Notes: generated by a model not told the origin, from the sequence alone. DNA of 64,000 bases from Minisyncoccota bacterium (GCA_035403785.1 DAONFW010000005.1:3045-67044); one strand, 5' to 3'. Shown: positions 8,326 to 59,516, counted from the stretch's first letter. Translations and numbers: made by a program.

Positions 8326-8353
8326 ATCCCGTTTGTTAAATTTCTAACGGGAT
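8326..8353 (-). repeat. Minimal copy of the 'atcccgtt…aacgggat' palindromic element. It forms a hairpin downstream of gene 8357-8977 and upstream of the DGR target gene.
   Basis: atcccgtt-tgttaaatttct-aacgggat on the plus strand. The minus strand reads atcccgttagaaat ttaac aaacgggat. The same half-sites occur at 53163/53429 and 59426/59503. Confidence 0.5.
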
Positions 8354-8356
8354 AAG

Positions 8357-8977
8357 TTATTTTTTTTCATTATTAAGTTGATTAATAATTCCTCTGGTAA
8401 TGGGACCGACAATACCATCGGGTTTTAATTTGTTTTTAGTTTGGAATGCTTTGACTGCTTTGTCAGTAAGTTTTCCAAATAATGTGGTTTCATGTCCTGT
8501 TGAACCAAATCCTGTTTGAGTTAGTGAAAAGCCATGAGTGTTTAAGAATACTTGAAGTGCTTTAACATCAGTTCCTATCATTTTGAGTTTTAAAGTTCTT
8601 TCGAGTAATGGTGGTGTTACTGTTGATGTAGGATTTTCTGTAGGAGTAACTACTGGAAGATTTGCTTTTGATCCATAACCTGGCAAATAACTACCGGAAG
8701 AAGTGTGGTGAGTTCTAGTACTGGCTGGTCTCCAGTCAGTGGTTACTATGTTTGTATTATCTTTATCAAAAGTGATCCAACCGATGTTTTCACCATAAGC
8801 GGCTCCGGTGAAGTAACCATGGTTGTCTATGGTAACATTTGAGAAGTCTACCCAACCTATGTTTTCACCCCAAGCGTAACCGGTGACAGTTCCGTTAGTG
8901 GTAGAAGCGAAAGCTTGAGTGGAAATGATTAGAAATGAGAATAGAAAGATTGTTAGTAATGTTAGTTTATTTTTCAT
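8357..8977 (-). CDS. Secreted protein with GENIGW repeats and a C-terminal peptidoglycan-binding (PG_binding_1-like) domain.
   Basis: The signal peptide is MKNKLTLLTIFLFSFLIISTQAFA. The repeats are GYAWGENIGWVDF and AYGENIGWITF. The C-terminal …VKALQVFLNTHGF…PDGIVGPITRGIINQL matches the PGBD consensus and is similar to the C-terminus of gene 62177-64000. Confidence 0.55.
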   Translation of the reverse strand: MKNKLTLLTIFLFSFLIISTQAFASTTNGTVTGYAWGENIGWVDFSNVTIDNHGYFTGAAYGENIGWITFDKDNTNIVTTDWRPASTRTHHTSSGSYLPGYGSKANLPVVTPTENPTSTVTPPLLERTLKLKMIGTDVKALQVFLNTHGFSLTQTGFGSTGHETTLFGKLTDKAVKAFQTKNKLKPDGIVGPITRGIINQLNNEKK

Positions 8978-9095: not shown

Positions 9096-10043
9096 CTATT
9101 TGTCCCAACTAAATCCCCTACCAAAATGGCCCCATTTTGAAGTTTCAGCAAATTTTACTTCATCTAATTTAAGTAAGTTTTTTATACCAGCTGGCGTTAA
9201 ATCATATTTTTCTAAATCTATTTTTTCTTCTTTTCCATCTAGAACAGTCACAGCCATGACTGGTTCTGGTTTACCAATGCAATAAGCTAATTTTACAAAA
9301 GCTTCTTTTGCTTTTCCTGATTTTACAAAATCAACTGCAATCTTTCGAGCAACATAAGCGCCAGATCTATCTACTTTCGTATAATCTTTTCCCGAAAAAG
9401 AACCCCCACCGATTGGAACTTCTGGACCATAATTATCTATTATTAATTTTCTTCCAGACAAACCTGTATCAGCGTCAAAACCACCAACATTCCATTCACC
9501 TGACTGATTAATTAAATATTCTTCAGAATTTATTAAACTTTTTACTAAATCTAATAATTCTGCATTTTTAGTATTTTGAAAACTCACAACTACTGTTTTT
9601 ACTTCTTCGTTTTCTAATGTAACCTGAACTTTCCCATCGTATGGATATTTTTCATAAATTTTCATACACAAATTTCTCGCCAGATCATATTCTCTCGGCA
9701 TCATACTTTCTGTTTCAGAAGTTGCATAACCTTTCATGATTCCTTGATCTCCCGCACCGCCAGTATCAACTCCTCGCGAAATTTCGAAACTTTGCTTTAC
9801 TAAATTTATTTTTACTTCAAAATCCTGATTGACTATTTTTTTTACCAAACTTTCTAAATCTGGATTTCCTAAACTTGTAATCTCGCCATTGATTGTAATC
9901 AAATTGTGTCCACCCATTACTTCTACTGCAACTCTGCTGTTCTTGTCTTCTTTCAAATACGCATCTAAAATAGAATCTGCGATAAAATCACAAATCTTAT
10001 CAGGATGCCCAGGACTAACAAATTCTGCTGTTTTTGTACTCAT
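9096..10043 (-). CDS. metK: S-adenosylmethionine synthetase, a compact 315-aa form.
   Basis: It carries the GHPDKICD motif and GGGSFSGKDYTKVDRSGAYVARKIA, the MetK signature GGGAFSGKDxTKVDRS, and ends in …GHFGRGFSWDK. Confidence 0.85.
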   Translation of the reverse strand: MSTKTAEFVSPGHPDKICDFIADSILDAYLKEDKNSRVAVEVMGGHNLITINGEITSLGNPDLESLVKKIVNQDFEVKINLVKQSFEISRGVDTGGAGDQGIMKGYATSETESMMPREYDLARNLCMKIYEKYPYDGKVQVTLENEEVKTVVVSFQNTKNAELLDLVKSLINSEEYLINQSGEWNVGGFDADTGLSGRKLIIDNYGPEVPIGGGSFSGKDYTKVDRSGAYVARKIAVDFVKSGKAKEAFVKLAYCIGKPEPVMAVTVLDGKEEKIDLEKYDLTPAGIKNLLKLDEVKFAETSKWGHFGRGFSWDK

Positions 10044-10059
10044 AATTTTTGTAATAAAA

Positions 10060-10212
10060 AATCTCTAAATATTTAGAGAAAATGTTTTTCACGTGGACTA
10101 GACGTAAACATATCTCTCCAGTTTTTTAAAACTGGTTGGATTTAGCACCTTACTTTTGCAGGTTGCTGAGCGAGTCATAAAGCCAAATCTCTCGTCGCTC
10201 TCTTGATAACTA
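10060..10212 (-). ncRNA. SAM-I (S-box) riboswitch in the metK 5' leader, with a terminator-type expression platform.
   Basis: The minus strand reads GUUAUCAAGAGAGCGACGAGAGAUUUGGCUUUAUGACUCGCUCAGCAACCUGCAAAAGUAAGGUGCUAAAUCCAACCAG…CUGGAGAGAUAUG. This matches the S-box consensus (cUCUUAUCAAGAGaGG…AUGA…GCAACC…AAGGUGCUAAAUCCaGCAg…GAGAGAU). It is followed by the hairpin UCUCUAAAUAUUUAGAGA plus a U-run ending about 18 nt before the metK ATG. Confidence 0.75.
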
Positions 10213-41037: not shown

Positions 41038-41253
41038 TTATATTAATTTTTTTAATTCAGCTTCATACTTTGTCATAACTTCCATTGAAGCCTGCATTTG
41101 ATCCATACCACCTTTAACTTTTGCTTGAATTTCAGAAGCAATTGTTTTAAAAAGTTCTGGATTCTTTTCCATCATATTAATAACCATATCTATTTGAGAT
41201 TCTGGCACTCCTTGTTTTCGGAGCATTTTCTTAAGTAAAAAATTTTTAAACAT
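41038..41253 (-). CDS. Hypothetical small protein.
   Basis: A 71-aa helical ORF with a terminator immediately downstream. Confidence 0.3.
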   Translation of the reverse strand: MFKNFLLKKMLRKQGVPESQIDMVINMMEKNPELFKTIASEIQAKVKGGMDQMQASMEVMTKYEAELKKLI

Positions 41254-51373: not shown

Positions 51374-52100
51374 ATGCTATATATAAAATTAAATGATAAT
51401 AAACCAAAGCGAACAATACAAAAGACACTAATGCCATCAGAGGAATTATAATTGCAACTTCTATATAATATAAAGCATTCGCTCTATAGTTTATGATATT
51501 AGCCGATAAGTTTTTTATCTCTTTAAAATCTTTATCATAAATATTTGAGTCATTTATAAAACATTTCCTAGTTGAATCTTTAAAGATTTTATCTTGCGTT
51601 ATATTACTAAAATCTTCAATATTCATAGCAATCTTTTTATAACCTAATTGATTTTTATAATCTTCATAAAAAATTTTGATTATATTATCTTGATACTTCT
51701 CTGGCGCTTTAAGGCAAAAAGATTTGCCTAAAGAATGCAAAGAAATATATTCAATTTTATTATTTAATAAAACGCCGAAACTTCCTTTCTGTTCAAAAAA
51801 TTTTGGAATAGTATTCTCATAATCTTCTCCATTGTAGTTTTCCGTGTATTTATATAAAGTATTATTTATATGTATATTATGTTTGCTTAAAAGTTCCGTA
51901 TCATTTGGATATGATATCAACATTATATAAGAACCAATGGTTATTAAAAAAAACAATACTAAAAAAATTACTTTTATTAATCTATGCCACCAATGTTTAT
52001 TAAGCTCCAAACCATCTCTAAACAACCATGCTTTTGCTTTTTTATATACGATAGTTATTTTTTTCATATTATTTAATACTTCCCCCTGTTTTAACCACAT
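51354..52100 (-). CDS. Hypothetical membrane protein.
   Basis: A 248-aa ORF with two transmembrane segments. It overlaps the ends of both neighbouring genes. Confidence 0.3.
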   Translation of the reverse strand: MWLKQGEVLNNMKKITIVYKKAKAWLFRDGLELNKHWWHRLIKVIFLVLFFLITIGSYIMLISYPNDTELLSKHNIHINNTLYKYTENYNGEDYENTIPKFFEQKGSFGVLLNNKIEYISLHSLGKSFCLKAPEKYQDNIIKIFYEDYKNQLGYKKIAMNIEDFSNITQDKIFKDSTRKCFINDSNIYDKDFKEIKNLSANIINYRANALYYIEVAIIIPLMALVSFVLFALVYYHLILYIAYGNRKK

Positions 52101-53112
52101 GATCCACTAATGTATAAGTATACCCCATTTCATTGTCATACCAGCCAAGAACTTTTACCAAATTTCCACCGACAACTCGTGTCATCTTCAAGTCAGCAAT
52201 TGACGCATGGGATTCGCCCAAAATATCTGACGAAACCAAATCTTCTTCTGTCACTGCAAAAATCTTTTCCCATCTTTTGTCTCGCGCAGCTTTTTTCAAA
52301 ACATTATTTACTTCTTCTACTGTTGTTTCTTTTTTAGAAATGAAAGTAACATCTGCAATAGAACCAGCTGGAACTGGAACTCTTAGAGAAATTCCATCGA
52401 AAAGTCCAGTTAGTTCAGGAAATGCTTTTGTCACAGCAATCGCTGCACCAGTTGAAGAAGGCACGATATTTTGTGCTGCGGCGCGACCTTCTCGGAAATC
52501 TTTTTTGTTTGGACCATCAACTATTCCTTGCGATGCAGTATATCCGTGCACTGTATTTAAAATTGCTTTTTCTATTCCTAAAACTTCGTGTAAAATTGCG
52601 ATTAGTGGTGAAGCAGCATTTGTTGTACAAGAAGCATTTGAAGTCACATCACAAGTTCCAAATTTTTCTTCGTTCACTCCCAACAAGATAGTCTCACCGT
52701 GCACACTGTCATCTCCGCCTTTTGCTGGTGCTGATATCACAACTTTCTTTGCTCCAGCTTTTATATGCGCTTCTGCTTTATCATAAGAAGTGAATAATCC
52801 AGTTGATTCTACAACCACGTCTACGCCCAAATCTTTCCATGGCAAATTTGCTGGATCTTTTTCTGCTAGAACTTTTACTTTCTTCCCGTCTATAATTATT
52901 TCCTGACCTTCAACTTTTATATCATGATTCCAATTTCTATATACAGTATCGTGTTTTAATAAATAAGCCATATTCTGAACGTCGCCCAAATCGTTTACGG
53001 CTATTATTTCAATTTCTGGTCTATCCCAAGCTACTTTCAAAAAAGCTCGGCCGATACGACCAAAACCATTAATTCCTACTTTAATTTTGTTATTTTTATT
53101 GAATAATTTCAT
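52069..53112 (-). CDS. gap: Glyceraldehyde-3-phosphate dehydrogenase.
   Basis: A 347-aa ORF with NAD-binding INGFGRIGR and the catalytic SNASCTTN. Confidence 0.9.
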   Translation of the reverse strand: MKLFNKNNKIKVGINGFGRIGRAFLKVAWDRPEIEIIAVNDLGDVQNMAYLLKHDTVYRNWNHDIKVEGQEIIIDGKKVKVLAEKDPANLPWKDLGVDVVVESTGLFTSYDKAEAHIKAGAKKVVISAPAKGGDDSVHGETILLGVNEEKFGTCDVTSNASCTTNAASPLIAILHEVLGIEKAILNTVHGYTASQGIVDGPNKKDFREGRAAAQNIVPSSTGAAIAVTKAFPELTGLFDGISLRVPVPAGSIADVTFISKKETTVEEVNNVLKKAARDKRWEKIFAVTEEDLVSSDILGESHASIADLKMTRVVGGNLVKVLGWYDNEMGYTYTLVDHVVKTGGSIK

Positions 53113-53162
53113 ACATCTATTATACCAAATACCAACAAAAATATGCTAATATAAAAACATGA

Positions 53163-53442
53163 ATCCCGTTAGAGATCATATATGTTTTATTACACTTATA
53201 TTTTAAAAAGCAAGAAAGATGGTAAAATTTACACAGGAAGTACGAGCGACTTACGGAAGCGCCTTATCCAGCATAATACTGGAAAATCTACCTACACGAA
53301 AGGAAGAGGCCCATTCATAATTATTTATTACGAAGCGTGTTTATCAGAAGAAAAAGCAAGGTCGAGAGAATTATATTTAAAATCGGGAATGGGCAGGCGT
53401 TATCTTAGAAATAGATTAGGCGCTTCCTATCTCTAACGGGAT
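53163..53442 (+). mobile_element. GIY-YIG nuclease gene embedded between the two arms of the 'atcccgttagaRat / atYtctaacgggat' palindrome.
   Basis: The left arm atcccgttagagat is at 53163-53176 and the right arm atctctaacgggat is at 53429-53442. The arms are perfectly complementary. The same arms flank a 60-bp insert at 59426-59516 and form a bare hairpin at 8326-8353. Confidence 0.45.
53182..53436 (+). CDS. GIY-YIG domain nuclease, a small stand-alone protein.
   Basis: An 84-aa ORF. YTYILKSKKDGKIYTGSTSDLRKRLIQHN matches the GIY-(x10)-YIG motif plus the conserved Arg. A downstream Glu (EEKARSRE) is also present. Confidence 0.7.
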   Translation: MFYYTYILKSKKDGKIYTGSTSDLRKRLIQHNTGKSTYTKGRGPFIIIYYEACLSEEKARSRELYLKSGMGRRYLRNRLGASYL

Positions 53443-54136
53443 GAAAATCCACAGATTTATAGACCAAAATTTTGATTTAAATAATAAAGAACTAGAAATA
53501 ACTGGTGAAATAGCGCATCAGGTTATAAAAGTATTAAAATTTGAAATTGGTGAAAAAATAGAACTTTCTGACGGTAAGGGCGCTGTTGGAATTGGAAAAG
53601 TTAAGAATTTAAGTAAAAATACTGTTTTAGTAGAAATAGAAAAAATAGAGAAATTAGAAGAAAATAAAAAAACTACACTATTCTGCGCAGTTTTGAAAAA
53701 AGAAAATTTTGAACTAGTAGTACAAAAAGCAACTGAATGCGGAATTAAAAAAATAGTGCCAATCATCACAGACAGAACGATCAAAACAGGTTTGAAATTA
53801 GATAGATTAGAAAAAATTGCAAAAGAAGCATCTGAACAATCCGGCAGAAGTATTGTGCCAGAAATTTCTGAACCAGTTAGTTTTGAAAAAAGTTTAGAGT
53901 TAATTAATAAGACAGATTTAAATATTTTATTTGATATCTCAGGTGAAAAATTTTCTGAAATAAATTTAAATGATTTTGAAAAAATAAATATTTTTATCGG
54001 ACCCGAAGGTGGTTGGACTGATAACGAAATAAAAAAAATGAAAAATTTAAATTTTAAAATTGCATCACTTGGCAAATTAACTTTGCGTGCAGAAACTGCG
54101 GCAATAGTTTCAAGTTTTTTAGTATCAAATAATTAA
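53441..54136 (+). CDS. rsmE: 16S rRNA (uracil-N3)-methyltransferase RsmE.
   Basis: A 231-aa ORF with an N-terminal PUA-like domain and a C-terminal SPOUT domain (…IFIGPEGGWTDNEI…LGKLTLRAETAAI). Confidence 0.8.
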   Translation: MKIHRFIDQNFDLNNKELEITGEIAHQVIKVLKFEIGEKIELSDGKGAVGIGKVKNLSKNTVLVEIEKIEKLEENKKTTLFCAVLKKENFELVVQKATECGIKKIVPIITDRTIKTGLKLDRLEKIAKEASEQSGRSIVPEISEPVSFEKSLELINKTDLNILFDISGEKFSEINLNDFEKINIFIGPEGGWTDNEIKKMKNLNFKIASLGKLTLRAETAAIVSSFLVSNN

Positions 54137-54218
54137 AATAAAATATTGGGAAAAAGAAATAAAAAAAAACGCGCAACAGATTCATCTGCTACGCGTCATC
54201 AATCATTGTCAACCAACT

Positions 54219-54246
54219 AGTCCTAGCAGGACTATTTCTTTTTTTT
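54219..54246 (+). terminator. Intrinsic terminator after rsmE.
   Basis: The hairpin agtcct-agc-aggact is followed by atttcttttttttt. Confidence 0.5.
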
Positions 54247-54885
54247 ACCGCCGCCACCAATTGGGATTGCATAAGTATACGACAATCCAATCTCGTAATG
54301 TTGCTTCGGAGTACTCCAATTATGTCTTGAATGTCGATCATGATATACACCAAACGGTTCTAAATACAAAGTAAATTTATGCCGGTACGGGGCGTCTCCA
54401 CGAAGCGGTATTGGAATCGAAAACTCGGTTCGTAAACCAAATGTATTTCTGGACAGAAAACTAAAACCAAAGAGGTCTCCCGTTTCAAATCCATATCCCA
54501 CACTCATGTTCTGGCCGAACGTAATGTATTCAAAAAGCCCGACACCAAACCATTTATTTGGATGATACATAGCATGAACACCCAAGAACTGCTTGCCGAG
54601 GAAATTTATACCAACATCGGCTAAAGCTGTAACCATGTGTTTGGTTGTTCCGTTAGACAACTGAATCCCAGCACCAACATTGAACGGCCTTCTAATCGAG
54701 CCAGAAAATTCAAGTGGCACACCTGTAACAGAATATCCTCCACCGCTTTTGTCAGATTTACCTGATTTTTGCGTTGTGTTTTTGGCCGTAGAACCGGCCG
54801 TTGTGTACTGTGCCATCGATACTTCCGGCACAAAGAAGCAGGCCACAAAAAGGGCCGTTGCGAAAAATAACATTAATTTTTTCAT
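54232..54885 (-). CDS. Secreted protein with a beta-barrel-like sequence pattern (small OMP-like). The gene is GC-richer than its surroundings.
   Basis: A 217-aa ORF. The signal peptide is MKKLMLFFATALFVACFFVPEVSMA. It contains alternating hydrophobic/aromatic stretches (GVGLFEYITFGQNMSVGYGFETGDLFGFSFL…TEFSIPI) and ends GGGGKKKK. By eye the GC content is clearly above the roughly 30% of the rest of the window. Confidence 0.4.
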   Translation of the reverse strand: MKKLMLFFATALFVACFFVPEVSMAQYTTAGSTAKNTTQKSGKSDKSGGGYSVTGVPLEFSGSIRRPFNVGAGIQLSNGTTKHMVTALADVGINFLGKQFLGVHAMYHPNKWFGVGLFEYITFGQNMSVGYGFETGDLFGFSFLSRNTFGLRTEFSIPIPLRGDAPYRHKFTLYLEPFGVYHDRHSRHNWSTPKQHYEIGLSYTYAIPIGGGGKKKK

Positions 54886-54923
54886 TGTTTCTGGATTTAA
54901 TGATTATTATTTATATTTATTTA

Positions 54924-54951
54924 TTGACAAATTTCGAAGGTTTGTTATAAC
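54924..54951 (+). promoter_or_regulatory. Sigma-70-like promoter TTGACA-N16-TATAAC upstream of dnaE.
   Basis: ttgaca at 54924-54929 and tataac at 54946-54951, about 75 nt upstream of the dnaE ATG. Confidence 0.4.
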
Positions 54952-55028
54952 TATACCAAATTCAAGTGAAAAGTCAAGCATTTTCTTACAAATTTTTTTA
55001 ATAACTTTTTTGTGTTATTATATGTGCA

Positions 55029-58842: not shown

Positions 58843-59427
58843 TTAATTATACAAACTCATCGCTTTTTCTTTCCCTTCTGTAAAAATAACTTCTACTATT
58901 TCTGCAATTTTTTTAGATATTTTTTTAAGCTCATCTAATTCTGGTTTCTTGAATTCTCCCATCAGAAATTTTAAAACAGCTTCTTCCCCTTTTGGTTTTC
59001 TTATTTTGCCACTCGGTGTGGTCGGAGAAACTCCAACTCTTATTCTAGTAAACTCTTCTGTCTTTAATGACTTTATTATAGAGTTAACGCCGTTATGCCC
59101 ACCTGATGATCTATTGAAAGAAATTTTTATTTTACCCAAAGGCAAATCCATATCATCATAAATCACTACAATATCTTTTAAATTTAATTTATGTTTATCT
59201 TTCACATGTGCGACTGCAACACCTGAATTATTCATGAATGTAGTAGGTTTAATATATTCAACTGGTTTACCAGAAATAGAATCTTTATAAAAGAGTAATT
59301 TTGTATGTTTGCTTCCTTGCCAGTCAACTTTTTTTCCCAACATAAAATCGAGCACAATCCAACCAGTATTGTGACGTGTATTTTCATATTCTTCTCCTGG
59401 ATTTCCCAGTCCAACAACTAATTTCAT
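58843..59427 (-). CDS. pth: Peptidyl-tRNA hydrolase.
   Basis: A 194-aa ORF starting MKLVVGLGNPGEEYENTRHNTGWIVLDFM. Confidence 0.9.
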   Translation of the reverse strand: MKLVVGLGNPGEEYENTRHNTGWIVLDFMLGKKVDWQGSKHTKLLFYKDSISGKPVEYIKPTTFMNNSGVAVAHVKDKHKLNLKDIVVIYDDMDLPLGKIKISFNRSSGGHNGVNSIIKSLKTEEFTRIRVGVSPTTPSGKIRKPKGEEAVLKFLMGEFKKPELDELKKISKKIAEIVEVIFTEGKEKAMSLYN

Positions 59428-59516
59428 CCCGTTAGAAATATGTCGCAGTCAATAATAATTAAAATACTTTCCCGTTAAAATCTGCGACTGCGATTTCTAA
59501 CGGGATTCATATTTTT
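59426..59516 (-). repeat. Nested palindromic element immediately 5' of pth. It belongs to the same family as 53163-53442.
   Basis: The outer arms are atcccgttagaaat at 59426-59439 and atttctaacgggat at 59503-59516. An inner inverted repeat is tcgcagtc…gactgcga. The pth start codon overlaps an outer arm (…ctaacgggATGaaa on the minus strand). Confidence 0.5.

Follow-up and report, generated by a model that had tools for sequence, protein, structure and literature searches.

A 278-bp mobile element with a single predicted GIY-YIG nuclease gene at the start codons of host genes in Patescibacteria

Background

In a 64,000-nucleotide stretch of DNA (hereafter the window) from a Patescibacteria (Paceibacteria) metagenome-assembled genome (GCA_964410415.1, about 32% G+C), a gene for an 84-residue GIY-YIG protein lies exactly between two perfectly complementary sequence arms directly at the start of rsmE, and similar arms recur elsewhere in the window without the gene. 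The initial annotation, which pointed out this arrangement, offered two readings, namely a palindromic repeat family used as an insertion or homing site by the endonuclease, or a family of regulatory stem-loops, one of which acquired a gene in its loop. The question is therefore what the arms are, whether they preceded the gene or arrived together with it, and what the small nuclease has to do with them. The comparative analysis reported below indicates that the arms are the ends of a mobile element, which belongs to a widespread and apparently undescribed family in Patescibacteria that also leaves gene-less miniature copies.

Results

Structure of the rsmE locus

The observation made in the initial annotation was confirmed: the 14-mer ATCCCGTTAGAGAT is found at 53163–53176 and its exact reverse complement at 53429–53442. 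Five copies of the arm with at most 1 mismatch are present in the window, compared to 0.26 expected, and none of 100 shuffled sequences reached 5. The 84-aa ORF between the arms is a GIY-YIG domain (Pfam PF01541, E-value 3.5e-17, covering residues 3–68, with no other domain found), its TAA stop codon lies inside the right arm, and the ATG of rsmE is at 53441–53443. Some details required correction. The inverted repeat is exactly 13 bp in all 88 elements analyzed here and position 14 is not complementary, hence the outermost A/T of the 14-mer belongs to a flanking 4-bp direct repeat, TGAA. At the second locus, for which arms at 59426–59516 around a 60-bp insert had been given, the arms are at 59426–59439 and 59493–59506, and delimit a 79-bp element with 53 bp between the 13-bp arms. 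At 8326–8353, which had been described as a bare hairpin, the left arm is truncated to ATCCCGTT. The features of the three loci are as follows.

53144–53152, + strand: extended -10-like box TGcTAATAT of the host (rsmE) promoter, inferred from the sequence; it ends 6 nt before the relic ATG, so a leaderless transcript is predicted.
53159–53163, + strand: relic of the original rsmE start, ATGAA, of which 53160–53163 is the upstream copy of the 4-bp target-site duplication TGAA; this ATG opens only a 15-codon out-of-frame ORF that ends at TAA 53204–53206.
53164–53176, + strand: left terminal inverted repeat TCCCGTTAGAGAT (5' strand of helix 1).
53182–53436, + strand: gene of the 84-aa single-domain GIY-YIG nuclease, the only ORF of the element.
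53255–53264, + strand: 5' strand of helix 2, GGAAGCGCCT, inside codons R-K-R-L.
53418–53427, + strand: 3' strand of helix 2, AGGCGCTTCC, one nucleotide from the right arm.
53429–53441, + strand: right terminal inverted repeat ATCTCTAACGGGA (3' strand of helix 1), which contains the TAA stop codon (53434–53436) of the nuclease and whose last A is the A of the rsmE ATG.
53442–53445, + strand: downstream copy of the target-site duplication TGAA.
53441–54136, + strand: host gene rsmE (16S rRNA methyltransferase; PF04452, E-value 3e-44, and PF20260), intact and starting at the rebuilt ATG.
59427–59505, - strand: 79-bp gene-less miniature (MITE-like) copy with arms TCCCGTTAGAAAT/ATTTCTAACGGGA, inserted at the pth start codon; the target-site duplication TGAA is on the minus strand (59423–59426 and 59506–59509).
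58843–59427, - strand: host gene pth (peptidyl-tRNA hydrolase; PF01195, E-value 2.7e-53), whose ATG (59427–59425) uses the terminal base of the miniature element.
8326–8353, strand not assigned: 28-bp remnant hairpin composed of the truncated left arm ATCCCGTT, a 12-nt loop and the full right arm ATTTCTAACGGGAT; it lies just after the stop codon of the gene at 8357–8977 (- strand) and not at a start codon, and its interpretation as a decayed copy is an inference.

A family of elements with terminal inverted repeats and a target duplication

Eighty genome loci (designated below by L numbers) that encode relatives of the nuclease (54–94% identity) were retrieved and analyzed together with the window. 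In 62 of these 81 loci the gene is bounded by the same arms with at most two mismatches and by a direct repeat, and the resulting unit is 275–282 bp long, with a mode of 278 bp. In a total of 1.22 Mb, 88 arm pairs were found, of which 64 delimit full elements (267–329 bp, mode 278 bp) and 24 delimit gene-less copies of 48–179 bp; because the loci were found through the nuclease gene, the ratio of full to miniature copies is biased. The direct repeat immediately outside the arms is 4 bp in 29 of the nuclease-gene loci, 3 bp in 8 and 5 bp in 6, and 43 of the 88 elements have a perfect 4-bp repeat, while others have repeats of 3 or 5 bp or differ by 1–2 mismatches, i.e. the length varies more than is usual for a transposase. 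The repeat is almost always TGAA or TGGA and is preceded by A, and the target logo is A|TGRA and nothing else. The layout is therefore A-TGRA-TCCCGTTAGAGAT ... ATCTCTAACGGGA-TGRA, in which the last A of the element plus the duplicated TG form the start codon of a real host gene; examples of hosts are rsmE, ruvX, rpiB, topA, ftsH, recR, trmD, tsaD, murG and pheT. Nearly all of the full and gene-less elements sit at A|TGRA of a host start codon. Two insertions away from any ATG (L040 with the repeat CTAA and L014:530 with TTGA) show that the repeat is a genuine 4-bp duplication and not a part of the element. The upstream copy of the ATG is sometimes decayed to ATT, CTG or ACG, as expected for a redundant relic. 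Five genomes carry 2–3 copies each.

Orthologous sites without the element

Whether empty sites exist, and whether the palindrome occurs beyond the three loci of the window, had been set as tests of the original readings. Empty sites do exist, and the arms occur at dozens of other loci in other genomes. Six relatives (L086–L091; RsmE 73–90% identical) share the gap-rsmE-dnaE synteny but have neither the element nor an arm at the rsmE start, which is a plain ATGAAA... sequence. L091 reads aaatatgctagtataaaaat|ATGCCTAAAATACAT, L086–L089 read ...|ATGAAAATCCA/TTCAC, and the window reads aaatatgctaatataaaaac-ATGAA, followed by the 278-bp element and TGAAAATCCACAG. In L091, aaatatgctagtataaaaat is directly followed by the ATG, i.e. 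the putative -10 region is kept in the empty orthologue. Likewise, two relatives (L093 and L094) have an empty pth start (...ATGAAATTAGT...), where the window has ATGAA, the 79-bp element and TGAAATTAGT. The gap-rsmE and pth-lepB junctions of such syntenic relatives, with no arms at all, read ...ATGAAAAT... and ...ATGAAATTAG..., respectively. The empty target can be written as AAAAACATGAAAATCC and the reconstructed empty junction as TATAAAAACATGAAAATCCACAG, while a circle or tandem junction would read CTAACGGGATGAATCCCGTTAG. Among the retrieved loci, rpiB, a 609-aa gene, the MQFKVPQF gene and the hosts of L020, L039 and L043 are each filled in some genomes and empty in others, and the window is the empty allele for three of them; most of these empty sites also lack an arm, except that L048 keeps a degenerate right-arm remnant. 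The arms therefore travel with the gene as its terminal inverted repeats, and no palindrome pre-exists at the target. An exact look-up of the RsmE product of the window, intended to identify within-species empty alleles, returned no record.

Miniature copies

Most of the 24 gene-less copies exhibit the same ATG/TGRA layout, including the one at 59427–59505 in the window. Their size classes recur: 79 bp four times (the window, L014, L021 and L030), 119 bp three times and 48–50 bp three times. The 48–50-bp class shares its interior (GCGAGCCCTCGC) between L014 and two sites in L030, and two 101–102-bp copies in L054 share their right halves, which indicates amplified families and not only decay in place. 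Four short copies keep the subterminal TTCCT of the full element beside the right arm, so they are deletion derivatives. Short copies away from ATG sites, similar to the remnant at 8326–8353, occur in L014 and L030. Elements also sit head-to-tail and share a single TGAA (L034 and L067) or are nested (L058), and an element next to another element's end was found also in L073. The 79-bp copy folds as a long hairpin as RNA or as DNA (z -5.5 and -6.5).

The GIY-YIG nuclease

Fifty-five of the 64 full copies have an intact ORF under simple criteria. The positions conserved across these copies include the tyrosines, arginine, histidine/asparagine and glutamate that form the active site of the GIY-YIG fold. 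For 32 gap-free copies the median pN is 0.08, pS 0.49 and dN/dS 0.106, indicating purifying selection. Copies inside one genome are old (pS 0.34–0.51), hence there is no sign of a recent burst. At sites occupied in several genomes, pS of the nuclease (0.13–0.50) is below that of the adjacent host gene (0.60–0.86) in all 12 same-site pairs, which means either horizontal replacement or an extra constraint on synonymous sites, part of which is accounted for by the helix described below. Comparison with proteins of known structure identified members of UPF0213 as the best matches (BH0048, 1zg2 in the PDB, E-value 3.1e-10; EF2693; 1ywl in the PDB, E-value 2.7e-4). The wider family comprises 8,047 clusters at 50% identity with E-value <= 1e-3 and 939 with E-value <= 1e-10.

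A conserved fold of the element

The 23 nt at the right end are almost invariant, including third codon positions, and they stay conserved even in subfamilies that read them in another frame, where the stop codon is a TGA overlapping the host ATG. The reason is a second helix, in which AGGCGCTTCC (53418–53427) pairs with GGAAGCGCCT (53255–53264). A search for pairing partners in the 64 elements revealed that every variant of one strand is matched on the other, for example AAGCGTTTCC with GGAAACGCTT and AAACGTTTCC with GGAAACGTTT. RNAalifold applied to 62 elements returned only the arm helix and this helix as long-range pairings, plus one isolated local pair. In pair counts, 98.8% of cells are paired, with 47 double-change cells compared to 11.2 in shuffles (0 of 500 shuffles reach the observed value), whereas slid controls pair in at most 48% of cells; three pairs of helix 2 covary (GC45/AU13, CG52/UA9, CG42/UA18). 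In the arms, positions 1 and 11–13 change on both sides together, especially in miniature copies. Mismatches in the helices do not favor the sense strand (6 G:U pairs against 12 A:C pairs). More distant subfamilies of the nuclease carry different arms of 13–17 bp (ACCCTGTTAAATA, TTTGACGGGGTTTG, ACCCCGTCAAATTGGCT).

Position relative to promoters and genes

Across 82 insertion sites, TANNNT hexamers peak 10–12 nt before the element end, i.e. 5–7 nt before the ATG; this holds for 40 sites, 14 of them with an upstream TG of the extended -10 type. The box at 53144–53152 was not called by a consensus promoter scan because there is no match to a -35 element. In this genome motifs of the Shine-Dalgarno type are nearly absent (1 of 62 predicted genes) and 22 of 62 gene starts have a -10 box 5–8 nt upstream, therefore leaderless transcripts seem common, and insertion is at about +5/+6 of the transcript. 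ATGRA occurs 381 times in the window: 25 times at gene starts, 32 times in intergenic DNA and 324 times inside genes. If only intragenic insertions were purged, about 44% of the survivors should be at gene starts, yet about 95% of the full elements with a downstream ATG precede a long ORF, and the miniature copies show the same bias. All full elements are co-oriented with the host gene. These data suggest either targeting of single-stranded DNA in open promoter complexes or strong selection for a harmless, transcribed position, and the start-codon bias could be partly due to selection rather than targeting.

Relationship to known systems

The closest described system are the Ssn nucleases with NTS/SRM hairpin repeats (Chenal et al. 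2025, Nat Commun, PMC11893778), 94-aa single-domain GIY-YIG enzymes that bind hairpin repeats and cut only ssDNA. In both cases a single-domain GIY-YIG protein of about 85–95 aa (below the 150-aa limit used for Ssn) is encoded by a gene flanked on both sides by inverted-repeat DNA that also occurs elsewhere in the genome, a folded single strand is implicated (here by covariation, there by ssDNA-only binding and cleavage), and the repeats carry a TCCCG...CGGGA core; the authors of that study themselves remark that NTS-ssnA-NTS looks like an insertion sequence. Here, however, the two arms pair with each other across the whole gene, rather than each flank carrying its own local hairpin, and there is a defined 278-bp unit with a 4-bp duplication, empty orthologous sites and start-codon targeting, none of which is reported in that paper, which also does not mention Patescibacteria. 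The published SRM motif HGTCWYN(0-2)YYVSBRHN(0-5)WNVSBRGN(0-2)RNCYNB, which matched the NTS control, gave no match in the whole window and none within 500 bp of the gene in all 80 loci; the flanking inverted repeats found here have a different sequence and geometry. Literature searches on GIY-YIG proteins in connection with CPR bacteria, transposons, MITEs, target duplications and hairpins found no description of this element, and only the Ssn paper is close.

By sequence, the protein is nearest to the small single-domain UPF0213/COG2827 proteins of the same size (YazA, YhbQ, BH0048), and hits in the plasmid database were a YazA orthologue and YhbQ-like genes. The YazA and YhbQ-like examples retrieved sit in ordinary gene neighborhoods, YazA between trmN6 and rsmI, and mobility is not known to have been reported for them. 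With insertion sequences and their MITEs (for example the Correia elements of Neisseria) the element shares terminal inverted repeats, a short target duplication, presence/absence polymorphism, gene-less miniature derivatives in recurrent size classes and insertion next to genes so that the element is co-transcribed. It encodes, however, only a GIY-YIG domain and no transposase of any established class (DDE, DEDD, HUH, serine, tyrosine, Cas1), at 278 bp it is far smaller than any autonomous IS known to us, and its arms show strict compensatory pairing in addition to the internal helix. IS200/IS605 and REP/RAYT systems likewise link a small nuclease gene to hairpin-forming repeats that it is thought to act on as ssDNA, with repeat copies scattered in the genome and, in REP/RAYT, a gene bracketed by inverted repeats. 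Those enzymes are HUH (Y1) tyrosine transposases that form covalent intermediates, their catalytic fold is different, and IS200/IS605 elements make no target duplication and have no terminal inverted repeats. Free-standing GIY-YIG homing endonucleases (I-TevI, Seg proteins) also have a GIY-YIG catalytic domain in a selfish, horizontally spreading gene, and here the same sites are occupied in diverged genomes and the nuclease gene looks younger than its neighbors. Yet homing enzymes carry a long DNA-binding domain (I-TevI is 245 aa), while the protein analyzed here consists of the catalytic domain only and scores 26.9 bits against the TIGR01453 cut-off of 56.05, so it is not an I-TevI-type enzyme; moreover, homing elements lack inverted repeats and target duplications and do not colonize many unrelated genes. 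The element can be thus regarded as working like an Ssn/hairpin pair packaged as an IS-like unit with MITEs.

Discussion

The interpretation proposed in the initial annotation is only partly supported: a mobile GIY-YIG gene and a repeat family are indeed linked and gene-less copies exist, but both specific readings fail. What the analysis demonstrates is that positions 53164–53441 are a 278-bp insertion with 13-bp terminal inverted repeats and a 4-bp target duplication, which landed between bases +5 and +6 of rsmE and, owing to the terminal A of its right end and the TG of the duplicated target, rebuilt the start codon and left rsmE intact, that the 79-bp copy at the pth start is a gene-less member of the same family, and that this family is widespread in Patescibacteria, present or absent at orthologous sites, and carries a predicted nuclease under purifying selection. 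What remains inferred is that the functional form of the element is a folded single strand, either strand and either DNA or RNA, in which the two arms pair and the second 10-bp helix stacks next to the right arm, both helices being maintained by compensatory substitutions, including at synonymous codon positions (two independent double-stranded binding sites would not need such compensation). Inferred are also the nuclease activity itself, its binding to the fold and its cleavage of ssDNA: by analogy with the Ssn nucleases, we propose that the protein recognizes this fold in ssDNA and cuts at its base and/or at the target A|TGRA, while host repair or replication would complete the insertion, because a hydrolytic GIY-YIG enzyme is not known to rejoin DNA and the nuclease cannot be a complete transposase. 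Mobile insertion with miniature derivatives is very likely, whereas action of the nuclease on the folded single-stranded ends or target is a tentative proposal, somewhat less likely than not; the explanation as a whole is held with moderate confidence. The direct repeat, which varies from 3 to 5 bp and is nearly constant in sequence, fits a short recombination core or microhomology as well as it fits a staggered cut. More speculatively, the position downstream of -10 boxes suggests that the target is the single-stranded non-template strand of open promoter complexes at leaderless genes. After insertion the host promoter would drive a two-gene transcript, and the nuclease stop codon, which lies 4 nt before the host ATG, would allow translational coupling.

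Alternatively, the arm-bounded units could be non-autonomous elements moved in trans by an unlinked host or IS recombinase (for example a DDE or IS110-type enzyme, or a Xer-like enzyme acting on a short ATGAA core), with the GIY-YIG gene as cargo or a domesticated passenger. Inverted repeats with a short direct repeat are the classic footprint of a transposase or a site-specific recombinase, and the nearly constant TGAA/TGGA as well as the single TGAA shared by tandem copies are expected for a recombination core. However, the nuclease is the only ORF in all 64 full copies and is under strong purifying selection, the arms change together with the nuclease subfamily, the strict arm-to-arm compensation and the covarying helix inside the gene are not expected for two independent double-stranded sites, and no candidate recombinase was identified in a non-exhaustive search of the genomes; this possibility appears unlikely, though not excluded. 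Similarly unlikely, but not excluded, is that the helices act in the mRNA, through RNase III processing or stabilization or by control of translation of the nuclease and the host gene, with the spread occurring mainly by homing-type break repair between related genomes and not by transposition of a folded DNA strand. In this view the element is always co-transcribed with the host gene at the 5' end of the transcript, the arms plus helix 2 would form a helix of about 23 bp in RNA (the whole element folds with z -3.8), the short distance between the nuclease stop and the host ATG, the occupation of the same sites in diverged genomes and the lower pS of the nuclease gene would find an explanation, and CPR bacteria retain RNase III (PMC12641178). 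On the other hand, homing cannot create new sites with 4-bp duplications in unrelated genes, short copies occur at non-genic sites away from any ATG, G:U pairs show no excess over A:C on the sense strand, and no Rfam 15 family matches the element (the only hit in the window is a SAM riboswitch at 10107–10212). An RNA role and DNA mobility are not mutually exclusive.

The original readings are both very unlikely. A resident palindrome serving as the homing site could be suggested by the bare hairpins and short copies and by elements adjacent to another element's end, but it is contradicted by the absence of arms at the empty rsmE and pth sites and most of the others, and by the target logo. A regulatory stem-loop that captured a gene could be suggested by the real and conserved stems in the 5' regions of genes, but the gene-bearing form is the conserved, recurrent unit, helix 2 lies inside the coding sequence, the short forms have heterogeneous interiors, some of them with subterminal sequence of the full element, and relatives function without any stem-loop at these genes.

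All established classes of DNA transposons use DDE/DEDD, HUH, serine, tyrosine or Cas1 enzymes, so a 278-bp element that carries only a GIY-YIG domain would be the smallest autonomous-looking mobile element and would point to a new mobility chemistry. Perhaps it is the autonomous form of a new class of prokaryotic mobile elements whose only protein is a minimal GIY-YIG nuclease (UPF0213/Ssn-like) acting on its own folded single-stranded ends, inserting into the single-stranded initially transcribed region of leaderless genes and rebuilding the start codon as it does so, and the mobile ancestor that explains why Ssn genes elsewhere are bracketed by hairpin repeats; this possibility is tentative and more likely wrong than right. 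The target duplications, empty sites and miniature derivatives provide the first comparative evidence for the idea, so far raised only as a hypothesis, that small GIY-YIG nucleases paired with hairpin repeats (Ssn/NTS) descend from mobile elements. The rebuilding of the start codon and the position just downstream of -10 boxes make the family a natural marker of leaderless promoters in uncultured Patescibacteria, and the many nuclease/arm variants are candidate sequence- or structure-specific ssDNA nucleases for biotechnology. With respect to annotation, these elements explain hundreds of "GIY-YIG nuclease" ORFs that sit directly upstream of housekeeping genes in CPR genomes, and some mis-called N-terminal extensions.

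Other roles of the element were considered and rejected. A reading of the hairpins as intrinsic terminators is not supported, as no terminator-like site was found at 53050–53500 and no U-run follows the hairpin at 59427–59505. An outward promoter in the right end is not supported, since TATCTC/ATCTCT are poor matches to the -10 consensus. In-frame read-through from the relic ATG is ruled out, because although the two ATGs are 282 nt apart and in frame, a stop follows after 15 codons. A phage vector is not supported either: the exact 20-mer of the right end has 0 hits in IMG/VR, and protein searches of the phage and plasmid collections found only distant UPF0213-like genes. Finally, no tRNA was detected in the window and integration linked to tRNA genes was dropped for this family, although two distant homologues do abut tRNAs.

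The 79-bp miniature copy contains a third, internal arm-like motif (TTTCCCGTTAAAAT, positions 59466–59479 of the window), and the 79-bp copy in L021, one of the loci retrieved with relatives of the nuclease, has such a motif at the same position. In L039 (3940–3960), another locus of this set, compared with window position 41253 (minus strand), the upstream relic at the filled site reads ATGTAAAAGAA rather than a 4-bp repeat of the host start (ATGTTTCAAAAT), which hints at a longer, decayed duplication or a different insertion event. In L048 (6180–6243), an otherwise empty start of the gene encoding the 609-aa protein is preceded by ...gatctgcttctaacgag|ATG, a degenerate right-arm-like remnant, which may be a footprint of a lost element.

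Among the more distant homologs of the nuclease, the subfamilies at 54–62% identity represented by loci L077, L078, L081, L082 and L083 are bracketed, around the nuclease gene, by other inverted repeats (TTTGACGGGGTTTG, ACCCTGTTAAATA, ACCCCGTCAAATTGGCT, TTCATCCTGTTAAATAA), and in L082 the repeat again abuts the host ATG (that of a prs-like gene). The more distant homologs in L070 (5635–5900) and L072 (1414–1680), which exhibit 57–61% identity, lack the arms and end immediately upstream of tRNA genes. A different insert was found in L090 (1079–1201), the closest rsmE relative, where the rsmE promoter region carries a 75-bp palindromic sequence (cccagtagtgaattttggcaa...ttgccaaaatctactacgggg) flanked by a TGCTA direct repeat. 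This insert is absent from the otherwise near-identical rsmE relative L091, and it looks like a second, unrelated MITE-like family.

The analysis of the genomic context revealed that the GC skew changes sign from negative to positive at about 52000–55000 of the window and that the gene orientation flips at the gap(-)/rsmE(+) junction, exactly where the element sits. This could mark a replication origin or terminus, or perhaps it simply reflects coding-strand composition. In the whole window (62 predicted genes), Shine-Dalgarno-like motifs are almost absent upstream of the predicted starts (1 of 62), while about a third of the starts have a -10-like hexamer 5–8 nt upstream, which suggests widespread leaderless or SD-independent initiation in this organism. 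Elsewhere in the window, a SAM riboswitch (RF00162, 62.1 bits, E-value 5e-12) was identified at 10107–10212 (minus strand), directly upstream of a metK-like ORF (9096–10043, minus strand).
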